From NCBI GenBank assembly GCA_030632085.1, contig DAOVJY010000002.1:77325-141324 (forward strand): a stretch of 64,000 nucleotides of DNA. The letters are read 5' to 3'. This DNA comes from Candidatus Omnitrophota bacterium (GTDB taxonomy: Bacteria; Omnitrophota; Gorgyraeia; JAGLLT01). Of this stretch, positions 34,495 through 63,421 are shown one piece after another (positions within the stretch are counted from its first letter, which is position 1; each line of letters opens with the position of its first letter). The notes under the pieces were generated by a model. It saw only the letters and a program-made list of their open reading frames with translations, searched no databases and had not been told where the DNA came from. Made by a program: the position numbers and the translations under genes.

Positions 34495-34657
34495 TGAATG
34501 ATTATTAGCGTTTAGCCATAAAAGTCATACCCTGGTGGGCACAGGCAAGTTATAAGTCAAAAGTCATAAGACACAAGTAAAAAACAAAAAATAAAAGGCT
34601 GAGAGTTGCCCGCTAAAAAATAGGATTGAACCTTAGGTGTAAAGTTAGGGATTAAAT

Positions 34658-34693
34658 GAAAAAAACCCGCTAAATATTTAGCGGGTTTTTTTT
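34658..34693. terminator. Bidirectional Rho-independent terminator
   Basis: A7-CCCGCTAAATATTTAGCGGG-T8: a perfect 10-bp palindromic stem flanked by an A-tract and a T-tract. It serves the + strand DRTGG gene and the minus-strand K-rich gene. Confidence 0.85.
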
Positions 34694-34717
34694 GATTAAT
34701 ATCTATAGAAAGTATTT

Positions 34718-34912
34718 TTACTTCTTTTTCTTCGCTGTTTTTTTCTTTACAACTTTCTTTTTTGCAACCTTTTTCTTTACTACTTTTTTCTTAGCTACCT
34801 TTTTCTTTACAACCTTTTTCTTAGCTACCTTTTTCTTTACAACCTTTTTCTTAGCTACTTTTTTTGCCACTTTCTTCACCTCCCTTTTTTTAACTATCCT
34901 TATTGAATTCAA
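34718..34912 (-). CDS. Lysine-rich histone H1-like/basic repeat protein
   Basis: Only minus-strand gene; composed of 30-nt tandem repeats encoding (KKKVAKKKVV)n. The likely start is GTG near 34870 preceded by SD GGGAGG, rather than the TTG at 34912. It ends at the bidirectional terminator. Confidence 0.55.
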   Translation of the reverse strand: MNSIRIVKKREVKKVAKKVAKKKVVKKKVAKKKVVKKKVAKKKVVKKKVAKKKVVKKKTAKKKK

Positions 34913-34962
34913 AATAAGTATACACTAAAAAATTATGAAAAACAAGACGACGAGATATTTTT

Positions 34963-34991
34963 TTTGACAATGATTTTTAGATGTCGTATAA
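34963..34991 (+). promoter_or_regulatory. Consensus sigma-70 promoter TTGACA-N17-TATAAT upstream of the rnf operon
   Basis: -35 at 34963-34968, a 17-nt spacer and -10 at 34986-34991; rnfC starts at 35046. Confidence 0.6.
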
Positions 34992-35045
34992 TAAGTACGA
35001 TTAATAGAAAAAATAAAATAATAGTTAATACAAAGGCGTATTATA

Positions 35046-36380
35046 TTGTCAAAGACATTTAAAGGTGGTATTTTCCTTCCGGAAAATAAGCATTTATCAG
35101 AAACCCTGCCAATAGAAATTATTTCTTTACCGAATAGAGTAATCATTCCTCTTGCATTTTATGGCGGTAAGAAATGTGAACCAAATATAAAAGAGGGTGA
35201 TCGGGTAAGCACCGGCCAGGTGCTTTGCGAACCGCAAGAGCATATATCTACTTTTATCCATTCGAGCATTTCAGGTGTTGTAAGTAAAATTGGAGAATTT
35301 CCTCATCCCGTTCTTAAGAAAAGCTATGGAGTGCTTATTGAGTCTGATGGAAAAGATTTAAAGGGATTTGAGGAGGGTGAAAGAAACTGGCAGAGTTTAT
35401 CAGGTGAAGAAATTATTAAAATTATAAAAGAGGCGGGTGTTGTTGGCTTAGGTGGTGCCGGTTTTCCAACGCACGCGAAATTACGTATTCAGGATAAAAA
35501 ACAAGTTGACGCATTTTTAATTAACTTAATTGAGTGTGAACCATATTTAACGGTTGATTATCGTTTAGCTTTAGAGAGATTTGATGAAATACTATCCGGT
35601 ATTAATATTCTGCTTAAGGTTTTAAGAGCTGAGAAAGCCTATCTGGCGGTTGCTGCCGATAAAAAAGAACTAATAGAGCATTTAAGCGTTAAAACGCGCG
35701 AAAGCAAAAATGTTGAAATAATTACTTTAAAGCATAAGTACCCGCAAGGAGAAGAAAGCCAGTTGATTAAAGCGGCCCTGGGAAGAATTATCCCTAAGGG
35801 CAAATTACCTTGTGATGTAGGAGTTGTGGTTGATAATGTGCAAACTGTTTATGCTGTTTTTGAGGCTGTCTGCCGCAAAAAACCTTTTTATGAAAGAGTT
35901 ATTACCGTTACCGGCCGGGGCATTAAAGAACCCAAGAATTTATTGGTTCGTATTGGCACCAGATTGCAGGACATTATTAATTATTGCGGCGGGTTTCAAG
36001 CTGATAAATTAAGAATAATTTATGGAGGCCCTATGATGGGTGTAGCTCAGGATAATTTAGATATGCCTATTACTAAGGAGACATCCGGTATTATATGCCT
36101 GCCTTTTAATAAAAAAGAAGAAATAAAAGAATCAGCTTGTCTTAGGTGTGGTAGATGTGTTGATGTTTGTCCCAGAAATTTATTACCCCTTGAAATGAAT
36201 AGGCTCATAAAAAATAAAAAATGGGATGAGCTGGAAGCGTATAATATTTCCGAGTGTATGCTTTGCGGTGCTTGTAACTATATTTGTCCGGCTAACATAC
36301 CCTTAGCCGCTAGAATGGCTTTAGGCAAAAGAGCATTAACCAGCATTAAGAAGGTAAGGTCAAGAAAAAATGGCAGCTGA
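35046..36380 (+). CDS. rnfC: Rnf electron-transport complex subunit C
   Basis: GLGGAGFPTHAKL motif and two 4Fe-4S motifs CLRCGRCVDVCP and CMLCGACNYICP. Confidence 0.9.
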   Translation: MSKTFKGGIFLPENKHLSETLPIEIISLPNRVIIPLAFYGGKKCEPNIKEGDRVSTGQVLCEPQEHISTFIHSSISGVVSKIGEFPHPVLKKSYGVLIESDGKDLKGFEEGERNWQSLSGEEIIKIIKEAGVVGLGGAGFPTHAKLRIQDKKQVDAFLINLIECEPYLTVDYRLALERFDEILSGINILLKVLRAEKAYLAVAADKKELIEHLSVKTRESKNVEIITLKHKYPQGEESQLIKAALGRIIPKGKLPCDVGVVVDNVQTVYAVFEAVCRKKPFYERVITVTGRGIKEPKNLLVRIGTRLQDIINYCGGFQADKLRIIYGGPMMGVAQDNLDMPITKETSGIICLPFNKKEEIKESACLRCGRCVDVCPRNLLPLEMNRLIKNKKWDELEAYNISECMLCGACNYICPANIPLAARMALGKRALTSIKKVRSRKNGS

Positions 36381-37305
36381 TTTTATTATATCAGATTCAC
36401 CATATATTCATTCAGGCAAGTCAACTAAAAAAATAATGTTTTTAGTTATGCTTGCTTTACTGCCGGCAATATTTGCCTCTGTATATTACTTTCGCGCGGG
36501 TGCTATATACTTAATTTCCACTTGTGTTATTAGCTGTGTCGTTTTTGAATACCTTATTCGGAAAATACGGCATAAAGAAACAACAATTTATGATTTAAGC
36601 GCGGTTGTGACCGGTATATTAATGGCTTTAATTTTACCTCCTAATTTTCCTTTGGGGGCGGCGGTTGTTGGTTGTTTGGCGGCCGTTTTTTTAGGCAAAG
36701 AGGTTTTTGGCGGCTTAGGCTCAAATATCTTTAATCCGGCATTAGTCGGCAGAGCTTTTTTGATGGCTACATTTCCCGTTTTAACTACTACCTGGTGTGA
36801 ACCATTTAGCCTGCAGGCGGTGACTACAGCTACACCTTTAGGGCTTATGAAATTTCAAAATGTAACAACCGATTTACAATCTTTGTTTTGGGGTAACGTT
36901 TCAGGTTCTCTGGGTGAGACGTCAGCCATCGCTTTACTTTTAGGTGGCATAATTCTCTTGCTATACAGAGTTATCGATTGGAGGATACCTTTTGGTTATA
37001 TAGTTACGGTAGCACTTATTTCCTTGGGCTTTCATTCAGCTAATCCCGCGAGTTACGCGGGCCCTCTTTTTGAAATATTAGCCGGTGGTTTAATTATTGG
37101 AGCTTTTTTTATGGCGTCTGATCCGGTAACTTCTCCTGTAACAAAAAAAGGCAGGTTAATTTTTGGCGCGGGTTGCGGTTTATTAACTATGATTATTAGG
37201 TATTGGGGTGGTTTGCCCGAAGGTGTTATGTATTCAATACTTTTCATGAATGCTCTTAGGCCGCTAATTGATAAGTTTACCCGGCCGATTTGTTTTGGAG
37301 GTTGA
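36370..37305 (+). CDS. rnfD: Rnf complex subunit D
   Basis: Polytopic membrane protein; FMASDPVTSP is the FMN-attachment region of RnfD/NqrB. Confidence 0.9.
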   Translation: MAADFIISDSPYIHSGKSTKKIMFLVMLALLPAIFASVYYFRAGAIYLISTCVISCVVFEYLIRKIRHKETTIYDLSAVVTGILMALILPPNFPLGAAVVGCLAAVFLGKEVFGGLGSNIFNPALVGRAFLMATFPVLTTTWCEPFSLQAVTTATPLGLMKFQNVTTDLQSLFWGNVSGSLGETSAIALLLGGIILLLYRVIDWRIPFGYIVTVALISLGFHSANPASYAGPLFEILAGGLIIGAFFMASDPVTSPVTKKGRLIFGAGCGLLTMIIRYWGGLPEGVMYSILFMNALRPLIDKFTRPICFGG

Positions 37306-37309
37306 TCAT

Positions 37310-37855
37310 ATGAAGCAGAGTTTTAAAATGATATTTTCTCTTTGTTTGATAGCTGTTGTCTCAGCGGTTGTTTTAGCTAAGGTTTACCAGATTACGCAGC
37401 CGGCGATTACAGCTAATGAGAAGAAGGCTACCGAGGTTGCCGTATATAAAGTTGTGAGCGCGGCCAACAGCTACAAAGAAGCTAAAATTGGTGAAATCGA
37501 TATCTTTAAATGTTATGATGAAAATAACAAACTCTGTGGGTTTGCTTTTACCGTTGAGGGAGTAGGTTATCAGGATTTAATTAAAGTTATGGTTGGAGTC
37601 AGTGCTGATTTTAATAAAATATTAGCAATTGAGGTTTTAGAGAATAGTGAAACACCGGGCTTGGGCAATAAGATAGAAACTCCCTGGTTTGAAAATCAAT
37701 TTCAGAATTTAGATCTTCAAAATAAAATAACTGTAGTAAAAGGAGTTCCTCAAAAAAATTCAGAGATACAAGCAATAACGGGGGCAACTATTTCTTCAGA
37801 GGCGGTAGTTGATATTGTTAATAATAAGATTGAAGAACTAAAAAAGTCTAAGTGA
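37310..37855 (+). CDS. rnfG: Rnf complex subunit G
   Basis: N-terminal TM helix; FMN-binding motif ITGATISS. ATG 37310 follows the SD GGAGG. Confidence 0.85.
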   Translation: MKQSFKMIFSLCLIAVVSAVVLAKVYQITQPAITANEKKATEVAVYKVVSAANSYKEAKIGEIDIFKCYDENNKLCGFAFTVEGVGYQDLIKVMVGVSADFNKILAIEVLENSETPGLGNKIETPWFENQFQNLDLQNKITVVKGVPQKNSEIQAITGATISSEAVVDIVNNKIEELKKSK

Positions 37856-37858
37856 TAA

Positions 37859-38485
37859 ATGCGAAAGATTAATGTATTATTTAGTGATTTTATAAAAGGG
37901 CTCTGGCAGGAGAACCCGATATTCCGCCTGCTTATTGGTATGTGTCCTACCTTGGCGGTTACAAGTCAGGTGAAAAATGGTTTAGCTATGGGTTTAGCTA
38001 CCACTTTTACTTTGCTTGCTTCAAGTACAATAATTTCTATATTTAGAAATTTTATTCCAAAAGAAGTTAGAATTCCTTCATATATAGTAATAATTGCTAC
38101 TTTTGTTACTATCGTTTCGCTTTTTTTAAAAGCAAACTTCCCGGAAATAAGTAAAGAATTGGGGCCTTATGTGCCGCTCATTATTGTAAACTGCCTCATC
38201 TTAGGCAGGCAGGAAGCTTTTGCTTCAAAAAATCCTACACATCGGGCTATAGCAGATGCTTTGGGCATGGGAATAGGTTTTACTCTTTCGCTGATAGCCT
38301 TGTCGTCGGTAAGAGAAGTTTTGGGCATGGGGACTCTATTGGGGCATCAGGTAATTTTTGGTAATTTTAGGCCCTGGATTATAATGTTAACTCCACCGGG
38401 AGCTTTTTTAACCTTAGGGTTACTTTTAGGTTTGGTAAATATAATTAATAAGGCCGTTAAAAACAGGAAAAAGAAGAAACAATAA
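37859..38485 (+). CDS. rnfE: Rnf complex subunit E
   Basis: RnfA/E family membrane protein, 208 aa, in the operon order C-D-G-E-A-B. Confidence 0.85.
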   Translation: MRKINVLFSDFIKGLWQENPIFRLLIGMCPTLAVTSQVKNGLAMGLATTFTLLASSTIISIFRNFIPKEVRIPSYIVIIATFVTIVSLFLKANFPEISKELGPYVPLIIVNCLILGRQEAFASKNPTHRAIADALGMGIGFTLSLIALSSVREVLGMGTLLGHQVIFGNFRPWIIMLTPPGAFLTLGLLLGLVNIINKAVKNRKKKKQ

Positions 38486-39073
38486 ATGGTAAAAGAATTA
38501 ATTTTAGTTTTTATCGCCACAGTATTAATAAATAATTTTGTCCTGAAATATTTTTTAGGTATTTGTCCCTTTTTGGGTGTATCTGATAAACTTTCTTCAG
38601 CGATTAGCATGGGGTTCGCGACCACTTTTGTAATGACCATTACCGCTCCGGTCGCCTGGCTGATAAATAATTATATTTTAATTAAATTCGACCTCCCTTT
38701 TTTGCAGTATGTCTGTTTTATTATAGTTATTGCTTCATTGGTTCAATTTGTTGAAATGGTGATAAAAAAGTTTTTTCCTTTACTGCATCAATCAATGGGA
38801 ATTTATTTACCTTTAATAACAACTAATTGCGCGATTCTTTTCATGACATTGCAGTTGGTTTTAAGAGAGTATTCTTTAATTAAAAGTATGGTCTTTGGAT
38901 TTGGTTCCGGAATAGGTTTTACTCTGGCTATAGCTATTATGGCTTCCATTAGAGAAGAACTGGAATTTCGGGATGTACCTGAATCCTTAAAAGGCCCGGG
39001 CATTACTTTAATAATCGCCGGCATTTTAGCTCTTATCTTTGTGGGCTTGGCCGGCTTGATACAGGTTAGATAA
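38486..39073 (+). CDS. rnfA: Rnf complex subunit A
   Basis: RnfA/E family paralog, 195 aa. Confidence 0.85.
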   Translation: MVKELILVFIATVLINNFVLKYFLGICPFLGVSDKLSSAISMGFATTFVMTITAPVAWLINNYILIKFDLPFLQYVCFIIVIASLVQFVEMVIKKFFPLLHQSMGIYLPLITTNCAILFMTLQLVLREYSLIKSMVFGFGSGIGFTLAIAIMASIREELEFRDVPESLKGPGITLIIAGILALIFVGLAGLIQVR

Positions 39074-39076
39074 AAA

Positions 39077-39355
39077 ATGAATATAGTCTTATTGTCAGCG
39101 ATTGTAATGGCTGTGCTGGCTGGAATCCTGGGAGCTATATTAAGTTTCGCGTATAGCAAGCTTAAAGTAGAAGAGGATCCCCGCAGGGAACAGTTGATGG
39201 ACCTTTTGCCGGGAGCTAACTGCGGCGCTTGCGGTGCCGCGAGTTGTGCCGACTTTGCCGATAAATTAATAAAAGGTGAAGCTGATATTTCTAAATGCCG
39301 AATTAGCCTACGTGATGAAGACAATCTGCTCAAGATTAAAGAATTGCTTAAGTGA
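39077..39355 (+). CDS. rnfB: Truncated RnfB-like subunit (TM anchor + N-terminal Fe-S domain only)
   Basis: TM helix and GANCGACGAASCADFADKLIKGEADISKC, the RnfB N-terminal 4Fe-4S domain. The usual tandem ferredoxin domains are absent; the gene ends at the A/C-rich spacer. Confidence 0.7.
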   Translation: MNIVLLSAIVMAVLAGILGAILSFAYSKLKVEEDPRREQLMDLLPGANCGACGAASCADFADKLIKGEADISKCRISLRDEDNLLKIKELLK

Positions 39356-39545
39356 TAATTAGTATTGTAAGTCACAAGACATAAGAAATAAAAAGTTACA
39401 AGACACAAGTCACAAGAGACAAGCAATAGCAAAGAGACAAAAAGCGAAGAGCAAAAAAACAAGAAATAAGAAACAAGTATAAAGTCACAAGTCACATGAC
39501 ACAAGTAAGAAACAAAAAAATAAAAACAAAAGAACATATCTGAAA
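39356..39545 (+). repeat. A/C-rich T-depleted modular intergenic spacer (CACAAG / GTCACAAG / GCGAAGAGC words)
   Basis: About 190 nt, roughly 55% A, with recurring words GTCACAAG (x4), ACAAG (many) and AAGCGAAGAGCAAAAAAACAAG. It shares its vocabulary with the spacers at 34.5, 50.1, 52.7 and 55.8-56.8 kb. Confidence 0.7.
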
Positions 39546-39593
39546 CGCCGCGTATATTATAATTCGGATGTGTCCCTAATTTTAAAAAAGGCT

Positions 39594-39622
39594 TGACAAC
39601 CATTTTGAACAATGGTAAAATA
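39594..39622 (+). promoter_or_regulatory. Sigma-70 promoter TTGACA-N17-TAAAAT upstream of the pyr operon
   Basis: -35 at 39594-39599 and -10 at 39617-39622. It is followed by a ~150-nt leader containing CCAGGAAAGGC, which resembles a PyrR binding loop, and a T-run. Confidence 0.5.
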
Positions 39623-39773
39623 ACTCAAATAATTAAAACCTTTTAACTTGGCACTGTGAGGCCAGGAAAGGCAAAAGATGGAAAAACCATATATACAAAA
39701 TCATAAACCTACTCAGGCAACTGGGTTGGTTATTTTTTTGTCTATTTTTGGCGGTAAAAAAAGGACATAATTT

Positions 39774-40325
39774 ATGAGTAACGATAAGATTAAAATAATT
39801 ATGGATGAAGAGCAGATTAAAAGAGCTCTTATAAGAATCAGCCATGAAATTCTAGAAAAAAACAAAGGTACAAAAGATTTGGCTATTATAGGCATTAGGA
39901 ATCGGGGAGCTTTTTTGGCTGAAAGAATAGCGGCTTTGATTAAAGAGATAGATTCAAAAGAAGTACCCATTGGTATTCTGGATATAACTCTATATCGTGA
40001 CGATTTAACAACCATTGCCTGGCAGCCCGTAGTCCATAAAACCGAGATAGATTTTGACATCGGTGAAAAGAATATTATTTTGGTTGATGATGTGCTTTTT
40101 ACGGGAAGGACCATTAGGTCGGCTCTTGATGCCCTGATTGATTTTGGCAGGCCGGCTAATATTCAGTTAGCTATTTTAGTTGATAGAGGGCATAGAGAGC
40201 TACCCATTAGGGCTGATTATGTAGGTAAGAATGTACCGACTTCGTTGGGTGAGGCGGTTGATGTCCGTTTAGATGAAGTAGATAAAAAAGAAGAAGTGTG
40301 TGTAAGAAAGGTTGATGAGAAATGA
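39774..40325 (+). CDS. pyrR: Pyrimidine operon regulator / uracil phosphoribosyltransferase PyrR
   Basis: PRTase motif [20 protein letters not shown]; 183 aa; first gene of the pyr operon. Confidence 0.9.
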
Positions 40326-42530: not shown

Positions 42531-42551
42531 CTTTTTACAAGGAGGCGCGTT

Positions 42552-42842
42552 GTGATGAAAAAGTTTTTTTATGTTTTGCTTGTTTTAATATGTATTAGTT
42601 TTATATTAACGGTTCAGGGATGTAATTTTTCCAAAAATTCCACCGGTAATAGGCAGTTAGCCGGTAAGCAAAAAGTTCAGGCTGAAGATTGGCTGCACAG
42701 TGCTGACCTTCTGTATAATGTAAAAGATTATAGCTTCGCGCTTGAATATTATAAGAAGGTTGTAAAATATTATCCGGGAACCAAGTACGCGTCTGAAGCC
42801 CAAAAGAAAATGGATGAAATTCAGAGCACAAAGATCAATTAG
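42552..42842 (+). CDS. Small secreted/lipoprotein with a single TPR-like unit
   Basis: Signal peptide with Cys at position 24; YNVKDYSFALEYYKKVVKYYPGTKYASEAQ; inserted within the pyr operon. Confidence 0.4.
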   Translation: MMKKFFYVLLVLICISFILTVQGCNFSKNSTGNRQLAGKQKVQAEDWLHSADLLYNVKDYSFALEYYKKVVKYYPGTKYASEAQKKMDEIQSTKIN

Positions 42843-42848
42843 CCAAAA

Positions 42849-44081: not shown

Positions 44082-44106
44082 AGGGATTAAATTACAAGGA
44101 GAAACA

Positions 44107-45126: not shown

Positions 45127-45146
45127 ATTAAAGGAGACATACTTTT

Positions 45147-48371: not shown

Positions 48372-48372
48372 T

Positions 48373-49152: not shown

Positions 49153-50057
49153 ACTTAGCGGTAAAAATCGGTAAATTAACACTTAAAAATCCGGTAATGG
49201 TTTCCTCGGGGACATTTGGTTGCGGTGAGCAATACGAGGAGTTGGTTGACTTAAAAGAACTGGGAGCTATCACAACCAAGACAATTACTTTACGAGAAAG
49301 AGAAGGTAATAAGCCTCCGAGGATAGCTGAGACTTATGCCGGCATGTTAAATGCTATTGGATTGGAGAATAAAGGTTTGAATTATTTCTGTGATACTACC
49401 CTTAAATATTTGAATTCTATTAAGACACCGTACATTGTTAGTGTTGCCGGAGAAGAAGAAAAGGATTACAGTAAATTGATAAAAGCGCTTGATAAGTTAA
49501 ATATTGAAGCTATAGAGCTTAATATATCCTGTCCGAATGTCAAATCAAAGAAAAAACGCATGTTTTCTCAGGATGCTCAAGATACATTTAAACTGGTTTC
49601 CAAGGTAAGAAAATTAACCAAGGCGACATTAATCGTTAAACTTTCACCTAATGTAACCGATATTAAAGAAATAGCTTTAGCTGCCCAGGACGCGGGAGCC
49701 GAAGCGGTTTCTTTAGTTAATACTTTTTTAGGAATGGCCATTGATGTTCATAGCAGAAAACCTAAATTAGGTAATATTACCGGCGGACTAAGCGGCCCGG
49801 CCATAAAACCTCTCGCGCTGCGAATGGTTTATGAAGCGGCAAATTGTTTGAAGATTCCGGTTATTGGCCAGGGTGGTATAATGTCACCTGAAGACGGTTT
49901 AGAATTTATTTTAGCAGGTGCCACGGCAATATCAATTGGTACGGCAAATTTTATTGAGCCGCAAAGCGCTATCTTAATTAAAAAAGGTATTGAAAAATAT
50001 TTAATAAAGAATAAAATAAAAAGTATAAAACAATTACGTGGCACCATTATCAGCTAA
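49143..50057 (+). CDS. pyrD: Dihydroorotate dehydrogenase catalytic subunit (class 1B)
   Basis: NPVMVSSGTFG, ITTKTIT and NISCPN motifs. Confidence 0.9.
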   Translation: MGVDLAVKIGKLTLKNPVMVSSGTFGCGEQYEELVDLKELGAITTKTITLREREGNKPPRIAETYAGMLNAIGLENKGLNYFCDTTLKYLNSIKTPYIVSVAGEEEKDYSKLIKALDKLNIEAIELNISCPNVKSKKKRMFSQDAQDTFKLVSKVRKLTKATLIVKLSPNVTDIKEIALAAQDAGAEAVSLVNTFLGMAIDVHSRKPKLGNITGGLSGPAIKPLALRMVYEAANCLKIPVIGQGGIMSPEDGLEFILAGATAISIGTANFIEPQSAILIKKGIEKYLIKNKIKSIKQLRGTIIS

Positions 50058-50263
50058 CAGCAAAGAGATAAGGGCTAATAGCTGATGGCTGATGGCTGAT
50101 GGCAAAGAGCAAAAAAACAAAACAAAAGAGCAAAAAAACAAACAAGAAACAAAACACAAGTACAAAGTCACAAGTTATACCCTTGCAGGGCACAGGCAAG
50201 ACACAAGCAAAAAACAAAAAAAACAAGATACAAGTACAAAGACATAAGTTGGAAGAGGGAGAA
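50058..50263 (+). repeat. A/C-rich T-depleted modular intergenic spacer
   Basis: TCAGCTAACAG, (GCTGATG)x3, AAAGAGCAAAAAAACAAA x2, CAAGTACAAAG x2 and the motif TTATACCCTTGCAGGGCACAGGCAAG. It lies between pyrD and pyrF. Confidence 0.7.
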
Positions 50264-50989
50264 ATGAAAGAAAAATCAAAAATAATATTGGCTTTAGATG
50301 TAGATACCTTAAAAGAAGCGCAAAGCATTATTAAGGATACAAAAAAGTATATAGATATATACAAGGTCGGCCCGCACTTATTTACGAAATACGGCCCTCA
50401 GATTATTAAACTTATTCGTAAAAGTAAAAAAGAAGTTTTTTTAGATTTAAAGCTGCATGACATTCCCAATACGGTTGCGAGTTCCGTGAAGCAGATAACC
50501 CGTTTAAAGGTTTACATGCTTACTTTGCATACTTCAGGCGGCCTTAAGATGCTTCGTGAAGCTAAAAAGGCGGCCGTAAGTGAAGCAAAGAAATTAAAAT
50601 TAAGAACTCCCATACTTTTAGGAGTAACCGTTTTATCCAGTTTCCAAAAGAAAGATTTAAAACAAATAAATATAAATTTAACAATTAAGGAGCAGGTTTT
50701 ATCGTTATTTAATTTGGCCCAGCGGGCTAATCTCGGTGGAGTTGTTTTATCCGCCAAAGAATTAAGTTATATTAATAAAATTAAAAAAAAGAAGTTGCTC
50801 AGAGTTGTTCCGGGTATCAGGCCAAGAGGGTGCAAAAAAGATGACCAGAAACGTACAATGGCTCCCAATGAAGCAGTCCGACAGGGTGCTGACTTTTTGG
50901 TTATAGGCCGGCCGATAATAAAGGCGCCTTCGGTAAAAAAAGCGGCTATGGCTATTTCGAAGGAGATTAACGGGGATTATGACAAATAA
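50264..50989 (+). CDS. pyrF: Orotidine 5'-phosphate decarboxylase
   Basis: KIILALDV and DLKLHDIPNTV motifs. ATG 50264 with SD GGAAGAGGGAG is preferred; the upstream K/Q-rich extension in the ORF track is a translation of the spacer. Confidence 0.85.
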   Translation: MKEKSKIILALDVDTLKEAQSIIKDTKKYIDIYKVGPHLFTKYGPQIIKLIRKSKKEVFLDLKLHDIPNTVASSVKQITRLKVYMLTLHTSGGLKMLREAKKAAVSEAKKLKLRTPILLGVTVLSSFQKKDLKQININLTIKEQVLSLFNLAQRANLGGVVLSAKELSYINKIKKKKLLRVVPGIRPRGCKKDDQKRTMAPNEAVRQGADFLVIGRPIIKAPSVKKAAMAISKEINGDYDK

Positions 50990-51557
50990 AGAGATTTTAA
51001 ATATATTTAAAAGATGTAATGCTTTAAAAGAAGGCCATTTTTTATTAACTTCGGGTTTACATTCCGGCGTTTACTTTCAAAAAAACCTTGTACTTCAGTA
51101 TCCTGATATAACAAAAAAACTTGCCAAAGAGCTGGCTGTAAAAGTTAAGAAGCGCGAGATAGATGTTGTTTTGTCACCGGCGGTGGGAGCTATAGTTCTG
51201 GGATATCAAGTAGCTTCTATTTTAAAATGTAAATTTTTATTTGCCGAAAGGCAAAAGAATAAGCTTTGCTTAAGAAGAGGTTTTACTTTACCTCAAAAAA
51301 GCAGGGTACTTATTGTTGAAGATATTATTACTACCGGAGGCTCAGTCCGGGAATTGGTCAAGTTGGTTAGTAAAGCCAAGGCCAAGCTTATAGGTGTCGC
51401 TTGTTTAGTGGATAGAAGCCGGGATAAGGCCAGATTCAATAAAATGAAACCCAAGAGCTTGCTTAAGATGAACGTAAAAAATTACCAGCCTTCAAAATGC
51501 CCCTTCTGTAAAAAAGGCCTTGAGCTTTCTAAACCGGGCAGCAGGAATTTTAAATAA
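50979..51557 (+). CDS. pyrE: Orotate phosphoribosyltransferase
   Basis: PRPP-binding motif VLIVEDIITTGGS. Confidence 0.85.
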   Translation: MTNKEILNIFKRCNALKEGHFLLTSGLHSGVYFQKNLVLQYPDITKKLAKELAVKVKKREIDVVLSPAVGAIVLGYQVASILKCKFLFAERQKNKLCLRRGFTLPQKSRVLIVEDIITTGGSVRELVKLVSKAKAKLIGVACLVDRSRDKARFNKMKPKSLLKMNVKNYQPSKCPFCKKGLELSKPGSRNFK

Positions 51558-51593
51558 ATAAACTACCCGATTATTCATAAATCTAATCACTTG

Positions 51594-51621
51594 ACAGACT
51601 TATCTTACCTTGTATAATGAA
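51594..51621 (+). promoter_or_regulatory. Sigma-70 promoter TTGACA-N16-TATAAT upstream of the yicC leader
   Basis: -35 at 51594-51599 and -10 at 51616-51621; it predicts a ~175-nt 5' leader. Confidence 0.55.
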
Positions 51622-51625
51622 ACCA

Positions 51626-51800
51626 AGACAAGAACAGGATTAAGGATTAAGGATTAAGTTAGAAGCAGGATTTGGACACAGAATTAAGTAAAAGCAACTT
51701 AATTCTTAAAGCGAATAAAATGAGCGTCTTAATTCTTAGAGTGAGCGAACGCGAACGTCTTGATATATAAGAAGTATAATACAAGAATAAAGGAAATATA
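51626..51800 (+). repeat. GGA-repeat / inverted-repeat structured leader (modular spacer family)
   Basis: CAGGATTAAGGATTAAGGATTAAG...AGCAGGATTTGGACACAG gives five GGA motifs in about 45 nt. A perfect 10-bp hairpin AGAATTAAGT-N7-ACTTAATTCT follows. Downstream are two inverted partial copies, CTTAATTCTTA(A/G)AG, and a ~40-nt module shared with the thrS leader. Confidence 0.7.
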
Positions 51801-52676
51801 ATGTTAAAAAGTATGACCGGATACGGATTAGGCAAAAGTTCTTTCGCTTTCGGTTTAATGACCATAGAGGCCAAATCTTTAAATTATCGTTATCTTGAAG
51901 TCATTGTCCGCTTACCCGAAGAGATCAGCCACTTTGAAAAAAAGATTAAGGAACTCGTCAAGCAGAAAATAAATAGAGGCAGGGTGAGCATTGTAGTTAA
52001 TATTGAAAATAAGGATGAGTCTAATTATAAGCTTAAAATAAACAAAAAACTCATTAAGTCATATTATAACACGCTAAAAGACATAAAAAGAGAATTTAAA
52101 CTCAAGGATAATCTCACCCTCGCTGAAATATTAAAATGCCCCGACATTATTACTATTGAAAAGAAGAGCCATCCGGATTTTAAAAAATGGAATAAGGCCA
52201 AAAGGGCTTTTGATGAATGTACTAAAGATTTGCTTAAAAGTCGAAAAACTGAGGGCAAATTTATTTTTAAAGATCTCAATACACGCGCTAAGAATATCGC
52301 GAATCTTCTTATAAAGATTAAAAAACGCCTACCTCTGGTTATAAAGGATCAGCGCGACCGTTATCTGAAGAAAGTTGCGGCTGCCGGAACAACAGGCACA
52401 AAGGCAAAGAACAATAATAGTGAATTTTACGCGTTAGCTCAGAGTTATGATATTAGCGAGGAGATTACTCGAATTAACGCGCATGTTAAAACTTTAAAAA
52501 AGTCAATGACCGAGGATAGTGAGGTGGGAAAGAAATTAGACTTCATTGCCCAGGAATTAGTCAGAGAGGCTAATACAGTCGCGGCTAAGACGCAGGATTA
52601 TTGTATTTCAAGCAGTGTTATTGAAATTAAAGCTGAAATTGAAAAGATTAGAGAACAAGTTCAGAATGTAGAATGA
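51801..52676 (+). CDS. yicC: YicC-family protein (stress-induced, RNase-like; YicC_N + DUF1732)
   Basis: N-terminus MLKSMTGYGLGKSS; 291 aa; conserved position upstream of gmk-rpoZ. Confidence 0.8.
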   Translation: MLKSMTGYGLGKSSFAFGLMTIEAKSLNYRYLEVIVRLPEEISHFEKKIKELVKQKINRGRVSIVVNIENKDESNYKLKINKKLIKSYYNTLKDIKREFKLKDNLTLAEILKCPDIITIEKKSHPDFKKWNKAKRAFDECTKDLLKSRKTEGKFIFKDLNTRAKNIANLLIKIKKRLPLVIKDQRDRYLKKVAAAGTTGTKAKNNNSEFYALAQSYDISEEITRINAHVKTLKKSMTEDSEVGKKLDFIAQELVREANTVAAKTQDYCISSSVIEIKAEIEKIREQVQNVE

Positions 52677-52793
52677 GCAAAAAGGATTAAGAATTAAGGA
52701 TTAAGGATTAAGTTAAAAGCAGGAAACAAGAGCTAAGAGCAAAAAAACAAAAACAAAAAGCGAAGAGCTGAGAAATAATGACCAAATATATCT
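52677..52793 (+). repeat. A/C-rich modular spacer with GGA repeats
   Basis: AAAAAGGATTAAGAATTAAGGATTAAGGATTAAG...AGAGCTAAGAGCAAAAAAACAAAAACAAAAAGCGAAGAGC. Confidence 0.7.
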
Positions 52794-53363
52794 ATGATGA
52801 GAGACGGTAAACTTTTTATTATATCGGCTCCTTCGGGAGCGGGTAAGACAACTCTTGAGAAGATGCTTTTGAGTTCCGAGTTAGGCCTGATTAAGTCGGT
52901 TTCGACTACGACACGCGCGCCAAGAGCGGCGGAAGAAAATCATAAAGATTATATTTTTCTTACCAAGGATGAATTTGTAAAGCAAAGAGACGAGGGTAAA
53001 TTTCTTGAATGGGCTGAAGTTTTTGGTAATTTTTACGGGACACCAAAGTCCAAAGTTATCAATGCCATAAAAAAAGGCAAAAATGTAGTTTTAAGTATTG
53101 ATGTGCGGGGGGCCGAGCAGGTAAAAAAGATATTTCCGGAGGCTATTTTAATTTTTATCAACACCTCCAGCCTCAATATTTTAAAAGGGCGGCTTAAGAG
53201 AAGGTTAACGGACTCTGATGAAGAGATTAATAAAAGATTAGAAGTAGCTAATAATGAAATTGCAAAATTAGGTATGTATGATTATACAATTATAAATGAT
53301 GATTTAGCTACCGCGTTTGGTGAACTAAAAAATGTAATTAAAAAACGTTTAGAGAAGGAGTAA
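52794..53363 (+). CDS. gmk: Guanylate kinase
   Basis: P-loop ISAPSGAGKTTL. Confidence 0.9.
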   Translation: MMRDGKLFIISAPSGAGKTTLEKMLLSSELGLIKSVSTTTRAPRAAEENHKDYIFLTKDEFVKQRDEGKFLEWAEVFGNFYGTPKSKVINAIKKGKNVVLSIDVRGAEQVKKIFPEAILIFINTSSLNILKGRLKRRLTDSDEEINKRLEVANNEIAKLGMYDYTIINDDLATAFGELKNVIKKRLEKE

Positions 53364-53365
53364 AG

Positions 53366-53560
53366 ATGGTAGATGTTCCGGTTGAAGAGCTCATAAAAAA
53401 AACCAACAGCCTTTTTAAATTAGTTAATCTTGCCTCGAGGAGAGCCTTGCAGTTAAATGAAGGAGCTCCGCCTTTAATTGAGGATGATAATCATCAGGCA
53501 AAGTACGCTACTATTGCCTTAGAAGAAATTTTAGCCGGTAAAATAATTTATAAGAAATAG
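53366..53560 (+). CDS. rpoZ: RNA polymerase omega subunit
   Basis: LVNLASRRALQLNEGAPP. Confidence 0.85.
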   Translation: MVDVPVEELIKKTNSLFKLVNLASRRALQLNEGAPPLIEDDNHQAKYATIALEEILAGKIIYKK

Positions 53561-53582
53561 TTTTTCCAGAGGTATATTTATT

Positions 53583-54119
53583 GTGAATAAGAAAAATAAT
53601 ATAATTGTCGGTATTTGCGGCGGTATAGCTATTTACAAAACATGTGAATTAGTCCGCCTTTTAAAGAAAAATAATTTTAATGTAATTTGCCTGATGACCC
53701 GGGAAGCAACCATGCTTATTCAGCCGGAGTTATTTAGTTTCCTTTCTCAAAACAGGGTTTACACGGATATTTTTTCAGCTAACGATAATTATGATCCTAA
53801 TCATATCAAATTAGCTAATTGGGCCGATAAAATGGTTATAGTTCCGGCAACGGCTCATATGATAGCTAAATTGCGAGCGGGTTTGTGTGATGATATTGTT
53901 TCCCTAAGCGTTTTATCAACTAAGGCAAAAGTGTTTATTTGTCCCGCTATGCATGAAGATATGTACAAAAAGAAGATTGTCTCTGAAAATATAACCGCGC
54001 TCAAAAAAAGAGGTTATAAATTTTCAGGCCCCATAAGAGGCAAACTTCTGAATCAAAAATTAGCCATGGGGCATCTGCAGGAAGTTAACCAAATTTTTAA
54101 AAGTCTTAAGCAGCTTTAA
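53583..54119 (+). CDS. coaC: Phosphopantothenoylcysteine decarboxylase (stand-alone flavoprotein)
   Basis: IIVGICGGIAIYKTCELVRLL; 178 aa with GTG start. Confidence 0.85.
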   Translation: MNKKNNIIVGICGGIAIYKTCELVRLLKKNNFNVICLMTREATMLIQPELFSFLSQNRVYTDIFSANDNYDPNHIKLANWADKMVIVPATAHMIAKLRAGLCDDIVSLSVLSTKAKVFICPAMHEDMYKKKIVSENITALKKRGYKFSGPIRGKLLNQKLAMGHLQEVNQIFKSLKQL

Positions 54120-54120
54120 T

Positions 54121-54783
54121 ATGACAGCTAAAAAAAGCCTTAAATTTTTGATTTCCGCTGGGCCTACCAGAGAACCTATAGATCCTATAAGGTATATTTC
54201 CAACTATTCTACCGGTTATTTGGGTTATGAAATGGTTCTGGCGGCAAAAAAGAGGGGGCACAGGGTTGTTTTGGTGAGCGGCCCGACAGCCTTTAAGAAA
54301 CCCGCGGGTATTAAGAGTATTGATGTAATTACCGCCAAAGATATGCTCAAGGCTTTAAAAGATAATATAAAATGGGCTGATTGTCTTATAATGACCGCGG
54401 CTGTTTCTGATTTTCGTCCAAAAAAAGCTCAACTAAAGAAAATTAAGAAAGATACTCAAAAAACAACCCTTCAGCTTGTAAAAAATCCGGATATATTAAA
54501 AAGTCTTAAACCATATAAAAAAGGTAAAATTTTCATCGGCTTTGCTTTGGAAACCCATAATCTGTATGAAAATGCCAAAAAGAAACTCAAAAGCAAGGGG
54601 TTGGATATAATAGTAGCTAATAAGAAAGGGAGTAAATCAGCTTGCTTCGGTGAAACAGATAATACATACTATATTATAGATAACTCTTTTAATAGCAACA
54701 TCTTAAAAGATAAATCAAAAAGTTATTTATCACAGTACTTAATTGACAAATCCTTTAAGGTATGGTATAATTTGTACAAGTGA
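54121..54783 (+). CDS. coaB: Phosphopantothenate-cysteine ligase (stand-alone)
   Basis: LISAGPTREPIDPIRYISNYSTG. It is separated from coaC by a TAA stop plus 1 nt. Confidence 0.85.
   Translation: MTAKKSLKFLISAGPTREPIDPIRYISNYSTGYLGYEMVLAAKKRGHRVVLVSGPTAFKKPAGIKSIDVITAKDMLKALKDNIKWADCLIMTAAVSDFRPKKAQLKKIKKDTQKTTLQLVKNPDILKSLKPYKKGKIFIGFALETHNLYENAKKKLKSKGLDIIVANKKGSKSACFGETDNTYYIIDNSFNSNILKDKSKSYLSQYLIDKSFKVWYNLYK
54743..54771 (+). promoter_or_regulatory. Perfect consensus sigma-70 promoter TTGACA-N17-TATAAT inside the coaB 3' end
   Basis: -35 TTGACA at 54743-54748, an exact 17-nt spacer and -10 TATAAT at 54766-54771. It drives the DUF1559 pilin pair. Confidence 0.6.
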
Positions 54784-54820
54784 GAAAAGGCTGATAAAAT
54801 TGGATAAAAGAAGGGTGTTG

Positions 54821-55234
54821 TTGGAGCGCCCGATAGATAAAAGTTATACTTTAGTTGAACTACTAATGTCGCTCTCTGTTATATTTATTCTTTTGGGGCT
54901 TATGTTACCCGGTGTTTTCGGGATTAATAAGCAAGCGATAAAAACGCGATGCGCTAATAATCTCAGGCAAATTTCACAGGTTTTAAATGCCTGGGCGGTG
55001 AGCCATGAATATTTTCCCGAAGATTTTAGGGAGTTGGTTGAAAAGGGGTATATAAGCGATTTAGACGCTTTTAAATGCCCATATAGAGGCTCTATTGATG
55101 ATTATGAGTTTCTAATTAAGGGCAAAAAGGTTAGTAATGTTGGTGCAGGTGCAGCTATAGTTTACTGCCGTCATTGTAATATGTTGGTTTTTATGGATAC
55201 TCACGTTGAAGAACATAAATGGAAAATTCCGTAA
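54821..55234 (+). CDS. DUF1559-type prepilin-like protein (planctomycete-type H-X9-DG pseudopilin domain)
   Basis: KS|YTLVELLMSLSVIFILLG followed by LMLPGVFGINKQAIKTRCANNLRQISQVLNAW. TTG 54821 with SD AGAAGG is preferred, because the ORF-track start at 54743 is the -35 box. Confidence 0.6.
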   Translation: MERPIDKSYTLVELLMSLSVIFILLGLMLPGVFGINKQAIKTRCANNLRQISQVLNAWAVSHEYFPEDFRELVEKGYISDLDAFKCPYRGSIDDYEFLIKGKKVSNVGAGAAIVYCRHCNMLVFMDTHVEEHKWKIP

Positions 55235-55253
55235 AAGGAAGGAGGTGGAGAAG

Positions 55254-55664
55254 ATGAAAAACAAAAAAGGTTTTACACTCGTAGAATTAATGATAGTTAT
55301 GGTTATTATAGGTATCTTGTTAAGCCTGTTACTTCCGGGTGTGTTTACCGCTCGTCAGGAAGCCTTGAAGACTCAAGTGGCCAGTAACCTGCGTCAGGTA
55401 GGCATTGCTTTATATGCCCATGCTAAGAATAGCAATGGGGCTTTACCTGCTAACTTAGCTGCTCTAGATCCTACTTATATTGAGGGTATAGCAGACATTA
55501 ACAAAAATATTGATGGTGACCCTTTCACTTTCAATGAAGCAACCAGTAATCTCTATAGCTTAAGTGCAAGCACTGTATTAGTTACTGATGATAGCATTAT
55601 TAGTGGTACTAATGCAACCGGTTATACACTTAGAGCGGATGGTTCTGTTAATACAAGTATTTAA
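55254..55664 (+). CDS. DUF1559-type prepilin-like protein, second copy
   Basis: MKNKKG|FTLVELMIVMVIIGILLSLLLPGVFTARQEALKTQVASNLRQVGIALYAH; C-terminal RADGSV (a DG motif). ATG 55254 follows the SD AAGGAGGTGGAG. Confidence 0.7.
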   Translation: MKNKKGFTLVELMIVMVIIGILLSLLLPGVFTARQEALKTQVASNLRQVGIALYAHAKNSNGALPANLAALDPTYIEGIADINKNIDGDPFTFNEATSNLYSLSASTVLVTDDSIISGTNATGYTLRADGSVNTSI

Positions 55665-55711
55665 TGTGAATGTAAGTTTTTATAGGCATTAACATTAAAT
55701 AGTTAATTGAA

Positions 55712-55748
55712 AGAGCGCTTAAAGAGTATTTTTAAGTGCTCTTTTCTT
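55712..55748 (+). terminator. Rho-independent terminator after the DUF1559 pair
   Basis: 12-bp stem AGAGCGCTTAAA / TTTAAGTGCTCT with one mismatch, loop GAGTATT, followed by TTTCTT. Confidence 0.6.
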
Positions 55749-55750
55749 GA

Positions 55751-55860
55751 TATCAGCACACAAGACATAAGTCATACCCTTGCAGGGCACAGGCAAGTCA
55801 CAAGAAACAAGTCATAAGGCACAAGCAAAAAAACAAGATGCAAACAATTACCAATGGCCA
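55751..55860 (+). repeat. A/C-rich modular spacer
   Basis: CACAAGACATAAGTCATACCCTTGCAGGGCACAGGCAAGTCACAAGAAACAAGTCATAAGGCACAAGCAAAAAAACAAG. Confidence 0.7.
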
Positions 55861-55993
55861 AATTCAATTCCGCTTCGCCCGCATCAGCCTTTGACGGGCT
55901 TAATCCTGTTTTTTGGCCCTTTTTCACTTGACTTTTGGCTTGTAAGTGATAAATTGATATCAAGTTTATATTTAAAGTCTATATAGTCATGCT

Positions 55994-56070
55994 GGCGGCA
56001 TACCCAAGTGGTTTAAGGGGACGGTCTGCAAAATCGTTATTCATCGGTTCGAATCCGATTGCCGCCTCCA
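55994..56070 (+). tRNA. tRNA-Cys(GCA)
   Basis: Acceptor GGCGGCA/TGCCGCC; anticodon arm ACGGT-CTGCAAA-ATCGT; T-arm ATCGG-TTCGAAT-CCGAT; CCA is encoded. Confidence 0.8.
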
Positions 56071-56235
56071 GTAAAAGCATAGAGCAAATAGCTAAGAGCA
56101 GATAGAAAAGCAAGACACAAGAAATAAGTCACAAGTAAAAGCAAAAGCAAAAGAACAAAAAAATAAAAGCAAAAAGAATTTTACTATACGATAACCAAAA
56201 AGGCGGGTTTATCCGCCATAGCTGGAAGCGAAGGC
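56071..56235 (+). repeat. A/C-rich modular spacer between tRNA-Cys and tRNA-Leu
   Basis: CATAGAGCAAATAGCTAAGAGC...CAAGACACAAGAAATAAGTCACAAGTAAAAGCAAAAGCAAAAG. It ends in the hairpin GGCGGGTTTATCCGCC, which reads as a terminator on the minus strand. Confidence 0.65.
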
Positions 56236-56322
56236 GGGCGAGTGGTGGAATGGCAGACACGTGGGACTTAAAATCCCATGGATGAATAATCCGTGTGGGT
56301 TCGACTCCCACCTCGCCCACCA
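56236..56322 (+). tRNA. tRNA-Leu(TAA)
   Basis: Acceptor GGGCGAG/CTCGCCC; anticodon loop CTTAAAA; long variable arm; T-arm GTGGG-TTCGACT-CCCAC; CCA is encoded. Confidence 0.8.
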
Positions 56323-56587
56323 GATTGGCAAATGGCATAGGGCGAATAGCTAAGAGCTTAGGGCAAAAAACAAATAAGAAACAAGATACAAGTAAGAATT
56401 TAGGGCGTAGAGCTAAAACGCAGGATTAAGGATTAAGACGCTCAATATTGACAAGTTGTTAGTGAGCTCTAAGGATTAAGTTTGGAACAAGAAACGAAAA
56501 GCAAAGCATAGAGCAAAAAATATAGAGCTATCAGCTAACAGATGGCATTGACTATTTGCAATTTGCTATAAGTTATTTGCTAATAAT
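56323..56587 (+). repeat. A/C-rich modular spacer with GGA-repeat module between tRNA-Leu and tRNA-Val
   Basis: It opens with the conserved tRNA trailer GATTGGCAAATGGCA, followed by ATAGCTAAGAGC, GCAGGATTAAGGATTAAG, CTCTAAGGATTAAG, CATAGAGCAAAAAA and TATCAGCTAACAG. Confidence 0.65.
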
Positions 56588-56664
56588 GGGCGGTTAGCTC
56601 AGTTGGTTAGAGTGCCACGTTGACATCGTGGAAGTCACTGGTTCAAGTCCAGTACCGCCCACCA
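56588..56664 (+). tRNA. tRNA-Val(GAC)
   Basis: GGGCGGTTAGCTCAGTTGGTTAGAGT D-arm; anticodon arm GCCAC-GTTGACAT-CGTGG; T-arm ACTGG-TTCAAGT-CCAGT; CCA is encoded. Confidence 0.85.
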
Positions 56665-56858
56665 GATTGGCAAATGGCAAAAAATAAGTCACAAGTAAAA
56701 AGTCACAAGTCACAAGCGAAGAGCTAAGAGCAAAAACAACAGACTATAGATTGAAAACAAAAGAACAAAAAAATAAGAGCGAAAAGAGAGAATAACTTAA
56801 TTCTTAGAGTGAATGAAATGAACGTCTTAATTCTTAATCCTTATCGAGGAAACAGGCC
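56665..56858 (+). repeat. Modular spacer / thrS leader with an inverted GGA-complement module
   Basis: GATTGGCAAATGGCA trailer, then GTCACAAG x2, GCGAAGAGCTAAGAGC and a ~40-nt module ACTTAATTCTTAGAGTGAATGAAATGAACGTCTTAATTCTTAATCCTTA that is shared with the yicC leader. Confidence 0.65.
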
Positions 56859-63243: not shown

Positions 63244-63421
63244 ATTTAAGTAGAGAAAAAAATTCCCTGCTTTGCGCGTGAAGGGCGCATAGGTTTGAGC
63301 TAACACCATTTTAAGGGGAACCTAACTTCATGATGCCTGATGGCAAAATGAGAGGTACCCACTTAGTAGACTGGGTTCAAAACTACCACTCTCACACGGC
63401 TATGGCGGGGAATTTTTATAT

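Follow-up and report, generated by a model that had tools for sequence, protein, structure and literature searches.

Degenerate heptanucleotide arrays and a palindromic element in intergenic spacers of an Omnitrophota genome

What are the A-rich spacers that recur between the genes in one part of a Candidatus Omnitrophota genome, and why do they share their words? The 64-kb stretch analyzed here (contig DAOVJY010000002.1; hereafter the window) contains nine non-coding segments between positions 34521 and 56858, which an earlier note had described as one family built from short shared words. Direct reading of the window found the listed words and all nine segments in place. The nine segments are runs of degenerate heptanucleotide repeats, (AAG-N4)n, plus a hairpin-forming element. 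The source is a Candidatus Omnitrophota metagenome-assembled genome (MAG) near 'Ca. Kappaea frigidicola'. The window corresponds to ENA scaffold ZHAN22-2_SAMN18200499 scaffold_7. Its YicC shares 81% identity with the protein from 'Candidatus Kappaea frigidicola', and the more distant named YicC homologues are all from Omnitrophota. About 84 kb were read in all, including 10 kb upstream and 4.5 kb downstream of the window. Promoters, terminators and inverted repeats in the window are sequence predictions, and L-numbers are labels of comparison loci.

The segments have a 7-nt period, which the earlier note had missed. Identity at a lag of 7 nt was 0.44–0.61 in eight of the nine segments, compared with about 0.25–0.43 at other lags. 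A sliding scan of the 64 kb found a lag-7 excess of at least 0.22 at these nine places alone, and Tandem Repeats Finder (TRF) gave period-7 or period-14 rows in each segment, with matches of 72–91%. The period was carried above all by one triplet. There were 48 pairs of AAG at lag 7, whereas shuffles gave 2.8 and other lags 2.9. For AG, the pairs at lags 7, 14, 21 and 28 numbered 77, 54, 43 and 32, against about 11 in shuffles.

The shared words were confirmed against dinucleotide-preserving shuffles. AAGWCAYAAGWCAYAAG occurred four times (0.00 in 100 shuffles), and AGGATTAAGGATTAAG, with at most one mismatch, seven times (0.00 in shuffles). A 23-nt word, TACCCTNNNNGGGCACAGGCAAG, had two exact occurrences and a one-base-shorter variant at 34530. 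The words were not equally common in genes, as a comparison of the 5.8 kb of non-coding with the 58 kb of coding DNA in the window indicated: CACAAG was found on the + strand 18 times in the former and 5 times in the latter, with one copy on the − strand of non-coding DNA, and GTCACAAG was found 9 times in the former and never in the latter. Words of 10–16 nt were found in non-coding DNA alone. Overall, the words were strand-specific and up to about 36-fold denser in non-coding than in coding DNA. Together with the isolation of the nine places by the period-7 scan, this bears out the view that they form a dispersed repeat system, not random low complexity. Of the 23 intergenic gaps that measure 40 nt or more, 9 hold arrays. 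These 9 lie between 34.5 and 57 kb, and one further array is just past the window. The arrays are thus non-coding and dispersed over many loci, as are heptanucleotide simple sequence repeats (SSRs) and short tandemly repeated repetitive sequences (STRRs). Nor do the segments derive from one duplication. The only local duplicate among them is a 21-nt tail, CCACCAGATTGGCAAATGGCA, which follows both tRNA-Leu and tRNA-Val (56298-56337 and 56640-56679). In a related genome, L123, a different common tail of about 80 nt follows these two tRNA genes. Such common tails are local duplications of the tRNA 3′ end and spacer.

The arrays are head-to-tail 7-nt repeats, again as in heptanucleotide SSRs and STRRs, but they are not long runs of identical or near-identical units as in long SSRs. 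Unit types are mixed (AAGTCAC, AAGACAC, AAGACAT, AAGAAAC, AAGGATT, GAGCAAA, GAGCTAA, TGGCTGA, TAGGGCN and others). The longest perfect runs are of three units (GGCTGAT and AGGATTA), and AAGTCAC is repeated perfectly only twice. The register is shifted by indels and by the interrupting 23-nt word. Identity between units is low and AAG is kept; therefore, the arrays are (AAG-N4)n mosaics, not single-unit repeats. NAG triplets stand at a fixed short spacing, as in binding sites of the HutP and TRAP type: the triplet is AAG (first base A in 75%), with four variable bases between. The conserved feature is thus one AAG per 7 nt, and not the abundance of ARN-like triplets to which the earlier note had pointed. 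Its composition of A>C>G>>T also needs correction. We found A >> G ≥ C ~ T, with G ≥ C in seven of the nine segments. T made up 23–24% of two segments, 51626-51800 and 56323-56587, because both carry the palindromic element described below.

Of eight arrays tested, seven had a predicted RNA fold weaker than that of 93–100% of random windows. The 23-nt word ATACCCTTGCAGGGCACAGGCAAG had looked like a hairpin. Because its fold did not surpass that of shuffles (z −0.4 to +0.2), it is treated as a conserved word, not as a demonstrated structure. A literature search with the exact repeat strings found nothing relevant.

Two different things had been merged in the single word family of the earlier note, although the words are indeed shared. 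The words AGGATTA and AGGATTAAGG belong to a separate, structured palindromic element, which is distinct from the heptad arrays. Its general architecture, from 5′ to 3′, is (AGGATTA)n, an apical hairpin AAGGATTAAG/CTTAATYCTT, an invariant core CTTAGAGCGAA-yrAAr-tGAGCGTCTTAATCCTTA, and (TAATCCT)n. In the first copy (51636-51762, + strand, 127 nt), (AGGATTA)x3.3 is followed by the apical hairpin AGAATTAAGT/ACTTAATTCT, the core CTTAAAGCGAATAAAATGAGCGTCTTAAT and another core-like unit. Because this copy begins about 18 nt past the predicted yicC promoter (51591-51618), it lies in the yicC 5′ untranslated region (UTR). This copy folds as a long nested hairpin with a minimum free energy (MFE) of −31.1 kcal/mol; full copies had z scores of −3.2 (this copy) and −2.25 against shuffles. 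The core folds into a small hairpin (97.6% paired) whose interior is a tandem G-A/A-G, and the apical helix is 76.8% paired. Two core pairs showed compensatory changes (AU 32/GC 6; CG 22/UA 16/UG 2). The element is thus an imperfect palindrome with a stable hairpin, like repetitive extragenic palindromic (REP) sequences, bacterial interspersed mosaic elements (BIMEs) and miniature inverted-repeat transposable elements (MITEs).

As the earlier note had proposed, a covariance model was built and relatives were scanned. The model matched three copies in the window: 51669-51749 (+ strand, E 1e-15), 56769-56847 (+ strand, E 6e-13; a truncated copy in the thrS leader) and 56416-56507 (− strand, E 6e-6; an inverted copy with a long loop). 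It matched 4–5 copies in L123 and none in L125, L127, L129 or L130; 712 kb of sequence covering 100 loci of other phyla likewise gave no match. The first copy is 93.7% identical to its counterpart in L123 (8324-8449), although the genes of the two genomes are 78–84% identical and the sites differ (pyrE-yicC in the window, pyrD-pyrF in L123). Against Rfam 15 at gathering thresholds, the whole window gave three tRNAs and 6S RNA and nothing in the spacers; at E ≤ 1, the region 49900-57000 gave tRNAs and one chance match alone. The 6S RNA gene (RF00013, 68.6 bits) lies at 63261-63415, directly after pheT.

A metagenome scan with the most conserved 17-mer of the element returned at least 120 loci. 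For this query, as for the 17-mer used in the cross-phylum scan below, hundreds of chance matches are expected in large collections. Among the matches listed, at least 47 were distinct true copies and about half were chance or clustered regularly interspaced short palindromic repeats (CRISPRs). Between co-directional genes, 29 of the copies listed were sense and 17 antisense. Copies are thus dispersed between genes, in either orientation and at non-orthologous sites, as those of REP/BIME or MITE families are. The genes that follow the copies have nothing in common: they encode a response regulator, DnaJ, AccC (biotin carboxylase), TrpF (phosphoribosylanthranilate isomerase), EF-P, a pyridoxal phosphate enzyme, ArgG, an amidotransferase and DksA, and thrS, yicC, pyrF and a tRNA are also among them. 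Since they share no function, we rejected a riboswitch or a leader specific to one class of genes. For a gene beside a copy of another subfamily, the named close homologues were all from Omnitrophota. Judging by its copies, the element behaves like a REP or MITE.

Two further ideas about the element were set aside. For the thrS leader, inspection by eye shows UCCU/AGGA pairing, in the window as well as in L123, that might sequester the Shine-Dalgarno sequence. The leader of the window did not fold better than shuffles (z +0.54), and we do not claim such sequestration. About ten metagenome matches were CRISPR arrays whose 37-nt repeat begins with GTCTTAATCCTTATT. They were retrieved because the search pattern demanded that 13-mer, and they show no relationship. 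The CRISPR-bearing loci are L136, L155, L161, L165, L201, L221, L222, L248 and L250; 13 nt are common to their repeats and the element core.

When did the repeats enter these spacers? Two relatives equally close to the window gave a clear contrast. L123 (81.4% nucleotide identity in genes) has arrays at the same three spacers, with unit content that is unrelated to and cannot be aligned with that of the window. L130 (81.1%) has no array in 11 kb: pyrD and pyrF are 4 nt apart, the yicC leader is about 26 nt long, and the yicC stop codon overlaps the gmk start codon (ATGA). More distant relatives agree with L130. There was no array in 21 kb of L125 (YicC 62% identical) and none at the three spacers in L127 (YicC 53% identical), which has a few different heptad arrays elsewhere. 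The pyrD-pyrF junction measures 1–4 nt in L125, L127 and L130. Because L130 is empty at equal closeness, the arrays are recent insertions or expansions into formerly tight junctions, and they are dispensable. Their content is wholly different between the two filled species, and the arrays turn over faster than the genes. Two side observations concern these relatives. In L125 and L127, yicC and gmk are separated by a remA-like gene (10873-11136 in each), which is not at that position in the window, L123 or L130. The Kappaea-like relative L123 carries a direct duplication of about 95 nt (ATGAAGACGCAATTTATGGAATGTAATAAACATAAA) in its pheS-pheT spacer (19919-20160).

The earlier note had placed the segments in the 5′ leaders of operons and between tRNAs. 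A leader position holds only for the yicC copy and possibly for the thrS copy. Two of the others are intercistronic (pyrD-pyrF and yicC-gmk), three lie past a stop codon but before a terminator or the promoter that comes next (those starting at 34521, 39356 and 55751), and three are in tRNA spacers. Strong sigma-70-like promoters are predicted at 34964, 39593, 51591, 54743 and 55928. No array overlaps a predicted terminator in the window.

All arrays in the window are on the + strand. The array at 34521-34600 begins 26 nt past the stop codon of an AAA_26/DRTGG gene (33382-34494), with the 23-nt word ATACCCTGGTGGGCACAGGCAAG at 34526-34548 followed by AAG-N4 units. Because it lies between that stop codon and an inverted repeat/terminator at 34646-34705, it is in a 3′ UTR position. 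The array at 39366-39545, of about 25 units (AAGTCAC, AAGACAC, AAGACAT, AAGAAAC and GAGCAAA), begins 10 nt past the stop codon of an rnfB-like (FeS) gene at 39355. It ends 48 nt before the −35 element of the pyrR promoter (39593-39621); hence it lies downstream of rnf, in a 3′ UTR position, and not in the pyrR leader. The third array (50058-50263) fills the pyrD-pyrF junction; besides (GGCTGAT)x4.4 at 50073-50103 it has units of the types GAGCAAA and ACAAG, and at 50178-50200 it holds the 23-nt word. This array is T-poor and stop-poor, which would explain a probable annotation artefact. Public gene calls take 50099-50989 as a protein of 296 amino acids (aa), making pyrF 55–60 codons too long, but PyrF has 236–238 aa in relatives and begins past the array. 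We therefore rejected this open reading frame (ORF) as coding through the array. The fourth array (52677-52793), in the yicC-gmk junction, has (AAGGATT)x4.4 followed by GAGCTAA, GAGCAAA and AAAAACA units.

The remaining arrays surround the tRNA genes. The array at 55751-55860, with the 23-nt word at 55775-55797, is downstream of a pilin-like gene and 68 nt before the tRNA-Cys promoter (55928-55955). The array in the tRNA-Cys/tRNA-Leu spacer (56071-56170) has TAGAGCA, TAGCTAA, AAGACAC and AAGTCAC units. In the same spacer, at 56202-56217 on the − strand, there is a GC hairpin with a T-run, which is terminator-like and opposes all genes. The tRNA-Leu/tRNA-Val spacer holds an array (56323-56587) of TAGGGCN, AAGAAAC and ATTTGCT units, which encloses the inverted element copy. 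In the last segment (56665-56858), an array at 56665-56800 leads into the right half of the palindromic element, and the segment adjoins the thrS Shine-Dalgarno sequence and start codon at 56859. The Logan assembly of the same sample breaks at 56635, about 225 nt upstream of thrS, in this repeat-rich tRNA/thrS spacer. A repeat unrelated to the heptad arrays was seen at 24200-24438: the gene at 24661 is preceded by a spacer of 468 nt, in which a 131-nt unit is tandemly duplicated (1.8 copies, 96% identical).

Are such arrays peculiar to this lineage? The query AAGWCACAAGWCAYAAG was scanned against 596 Gb with one genome per species, where several hundred chance matches are expected, and returned at least 120 loci. 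The matches listed came from Bacteroidota, Acidobacteriota, Omnitrophota, Elusimicrobia, Patescibacteria, Verrucomicrobiota, Planctomycetota, Gammaproteobacteria, Chloroflexota and Cyanobacteria. Among them, 63 of 120 had at least five consecutive AAGWCAC-type units and 21 had at least eight, with a maximum of 30; AAGACTC was among the unit types seen. The orientation of these listed arrays was random relative to flanking genes (18 ++, 17 −−, 18 convergent and 6 divergent) and without bias relative to GC skew (57:50). A scan of viral sequences gave 58 matches, 16 of them with at least five units. This is close to chance expectation, and we did not take these matches as an array signal. The system is thus lineage-specific, as the earlier note had it, in one sense only: arrays at these sites are absent from one equally close relative and from more distant ones, but arrays of the commonest units, AAGTCAC and AAGACAC, occur across many phyla. 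In three bacterial contigs (L111, L147 and L224), heptads of GGTTTAG/GGTTTAA or AGGGTTT, which resemble the plant telomere repeat, adjoin AAGTCAC arrays or the palindromic element.

How might the spacers have been filled? On balance, it is probable that they hold slippage-grown heptanucleotide repeats and a REP/MITE-like element, which are passively transcribed as structure-poor, A-rich RNA. The heptad arrays would be seeded at gene junctions and grow by slipped-strand replication in steps of 7 (and 14 or 21) nt, and the palindromic element would spread among intergenic sites of Omnitrophota genomes. Both kinds of repeat entered the spacers of the Kappaea-like lineage recently, and both are dispensable. 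The insertion relative to empty sites, the turnover, the dispersal and the lack of a functional association are direct results; slippage, mobility of the element and the filter on orientation are inferred. The arrays would be co-transcribed passively with the flanking genes, and their phased AAG core would leave open a binding platform in a 7-nt register. Selection would mainly filter tolerated content and orientation by removing harmful ones. The A-rich, T-poor strand would end as the sense strand because its RNA is structure-poor; the T-rich complement, wherever it followed a hairpin, would function as a terminator within operons. Among the long SSRs of prokaryotes, heptanucleotides form the commonest class, and polymerase slippage is their proposed cause (Mrazek 2007, as summarized in PMC4679880).

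Several observations weigh against this account of slippage, mobility and filtering. The main fact that slippage leaves unexplained is the phased, conserved AAG(W). In neighboring units of the cross-phylum arrays, positions 2–4 (AGW) differed in 5–9% and positions 5–7 in 18–46%; a kept AGW with free positions 5–7 is not predicted by uniform mutation plus slippage. Only 4 of 74 adjacent heptads in the window were identical, and neighbors matched at positions 4–7 with frequencies of 0.34–0.68, against 0.34 at random. Between L123 and L124, independent assemblies from two samples, 14.6 kb were identical, with no strain-level variation in copy number. As for mobility of the element, no transposase gene was seen in the 84 kb read, without a dedicated test for REP-associated tyrosine transposases (RAYTs) or TnpA, and no target-site duplication was obvious when filled (window) and empty (L130) sites were compared by eye. 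The arrays in the stretch from the window's lineage were all in the same, sense orientation (10 of 10), and in element-bearing contigs 29 were sense and 11 antisense. Since all genes in more than 84 kb are on one strand, transcription and replication direction are inseparable here, and in the element-bearing contigs, too, gene direction always agrees with GC skew. The orientation bias is therefore assignable neither to transcription nor to replication.

Two side observations concern this strand asymmetry. GC skew is strongly positive across the window and flanks (+ strand G 0.220, C 0.154), and the called genes across the approximately 84 kb are all on the + strand. The sole plausible minus-strand gene is a 64-aa lysine-rich ORF at 34718-34912 (KKVAKKKVVKKKVAKKK), which is built of 15/30-nt tandem repeats, has no Pfam match and has a histone-H1-like look.

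The phased core also suggests another account, in which the (AAG-N4)n arrays are platforms of RNA or single-stranded DNA for an oligomerizing protein with a 7-nt footprint (cold-shock/OB-fold, KH or a HutP/TRAP-like ring), which would control the flanking cistrons post-transcriptionally through translation, stability or antitermination. One trinucleotide is held in register and four spacer bases drift, and the same pattern of kept AAGW and variable positions 5–7 is found in other phyla. The arrays are strand-specific in this lineage, lie in transcribed spacers by their predicted promoters, and are single-stranded by prediction. HutP recognizes NAG triplets 4 nt apart. Bacillus subtilis CspB binds heptamer direct repeats with one protein per heptamer, as summarized in PMC4679880. 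We nonetheless consider this account unlikely. L130, equally close and with the same genes, has no arrays, array content is not kept at orthologous sites, the register is broken by 25–26-nt words and indels so that the AG signal decays from 77 to 32 pairs, and orientation relative to genes is random across phyla. Cold-shock proteins favor U/T-rich strands, unlike this A-rich transcript; the analysis turned up no candidate protein, and no search aimed at hutP or mtrB homologues was made. A bolder form of the idea, which we hold to be less likely again, is that AAG(W)-phased arrays mark a widespread, undescribed recognition code that is read in a 7-nt register by an oligomerizing single-strand-binding protein, the Omnitrophota arrays and their palindromic derivative being a genome-wide layer of post-transcriptional control on housekeeping operons. 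If the arrays were instead Rho-loading (rut-like) sites, unstructured, ribosome-free RNA would end read-through past operons and cause polarity between cistrons. Little RNA in the window is less structured than the arrays, which are untranslated, measure 80–200 nt and in three cases lie past a terminal stop codon without a strong intrinsic terminator nearby; in L123 they have C at about 0.18–0.20 and G at 0.10. However, G ≥ C in most window segments, AAGACAC units have no YC dinucleotide, and intercistronic copies would lower expression of essential downstream genes, so Rho loading seems very unlikely. Least probable of all is that the arrays are phase-variable contingency loci, in which slippage switches or tunes the adjacent gene as in neuO and hmw1A. 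The 7-nt unit and the AAGACTC type match the neuO repeat (PMC13001214), and the short perfect runs noted above would suit such a role, but the units are degenerate and form no perfect tracts, the flanking genes are housekeeping genes (pyr, gmk, thrS and tRNAs) and not surface or virulence genes, and the two assemblies of the L123 species are identical.

For the palindromic element, the alternative is a cis-acting RNA switch in the 5′ UTR, whose hairpin would be cut by RNase III or occlude the ribosome-binding site, with the number of heptads tuning expression. The 5′-UTR repeat (ATCTTTC)n of hmw1A in Haemophilus influenzae is a precedent (PMC12721329). The core hairpin covaries and G-U pairs in the arms fit one strand only, yet covariation is also expected of a mobile element that is recognized as a DNA hairpin, and with few subfamilies the compensatory changes represent few independent events. 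Full copies fold better than shuffles; the truncated copy in the thrS leader does not. Sense copies end 12–60 nt before a start codon, arm heptads number from 1 to about 8 between copies, and AAGGA/UCCUU mimic Shine-Dalgarno and anti-Shine-Dalgarno sequences, but 37% of the copies are antisense to local genes, and the downstream genes have no common function. We therefore regard the switch as doubtful, about as much so as a protein-binding role of the arrays; phase variation and Rho loading are less likely than either. Under slippage growth with a REP/MITE-like element, the arrays are a known kind of bacterial repeat in a new and unusually mosaic form.

To our knowledge, the number seven is without explanation, and functions of heptanucleotide repeats have been described for a few phase-variable genes of pathogens only. 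The present locus adds a comparison of filled and empty sites in which arrays are inserted into tight, translationally coupled junctions of essential operons. It also has a practical side, as arrays of this kind break short-read assemblies and mislead gene callers, as at pyrF. Among known repeats, cyanobacterial STRRs have the units CCCCAGT, TTGGTCA and CAACAGT, all of which are absent here. Those repeats and the heptanucleotide long SSRs share with our arrays a 7-nt tandem unit, an intergenic position, many dispersed loci, a patchy phylogeny and a proposed origin by slippage (PMC4679880). The arrays differ from them in having highly degenerate units of several types per array, with only AAG held, and in lying in uniform sense orientation inside operons of an Omnitrophota host. 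The TAACTGA repeats of marine Beggiatoaceae are likewise forward heptamer direct repeats in transcribed spacers of housekeeping genes, sporadic in distant phyla (MacGregor 2015, PMC4679880). S1, Csp and CsrA have been proposed as their binders (PMC4679880). These sets consist of one exact unit in 2–6 copies directly upstream of start codons, replacing the Shine-Dalgarno sequence (PMC4679880), whereas the arrays here have 10–30 varied units, are also found in 3′ UTR and intercistronic positions, and leave a separate Shine-Dalgarno sequence in place.

The phase-variable tracts also have 7-nt units. The transcribed (ATCTTTC)n repeats in the 5′ UTR of hmw1A/2A form one arm of a long hairpin that is cut by RNase III (PMC12721329), which resembles the AGGATTA/TAATCCT element, and the phase-variable neuO repeat, (AAGACTC)n (PMC13001214), is itself an AAG-N4 unit. 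Those tracts are perfect and hypermutable and govern surface or virulence genes, unlike the degenerate arrays here, which stand beside core metabolic and translation genes and show no copy-number polymorphism between L123 and L124. REP sequences and BIMEs have a GTAG-type head and an associated RAYT, and MITE-type elements have fixed terminal inverted repeats. Our element resembles them as an imperfect palindrome of 80–130 nt that lies between genes within operons, in either orientation. As in those families, it is better conserved between species than the genes around it, and its sites differ from one related genome to the next. It has no GTAG-type head, and its arms are heptad arrays of variable number instead of fixed terminal inverted repeats. 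HutP sites are UAG-N4 and TRAP sites (G/U)AG-N2-3, both being NAG triplet repeats on single-stranded RNA. The arrays share with them a conserved NAG triplet with a short variable spacer, and the HutP spacing gives exactly the 7-nt period; here, however, the triplet is AAG and not UAG, the units number in the tens and not 3+3 or 11, and they are not at a terminator or antiterminator. Against this background, two features are of most interest: the constraint on AAG phase, in which AAGW is kept and the rest is free, beyond what simple slippage and mutation would give, and a previously uncatalogued, covarying palindromic element that is spread through Omnitrophota, a phylum without a cultured genetic model.

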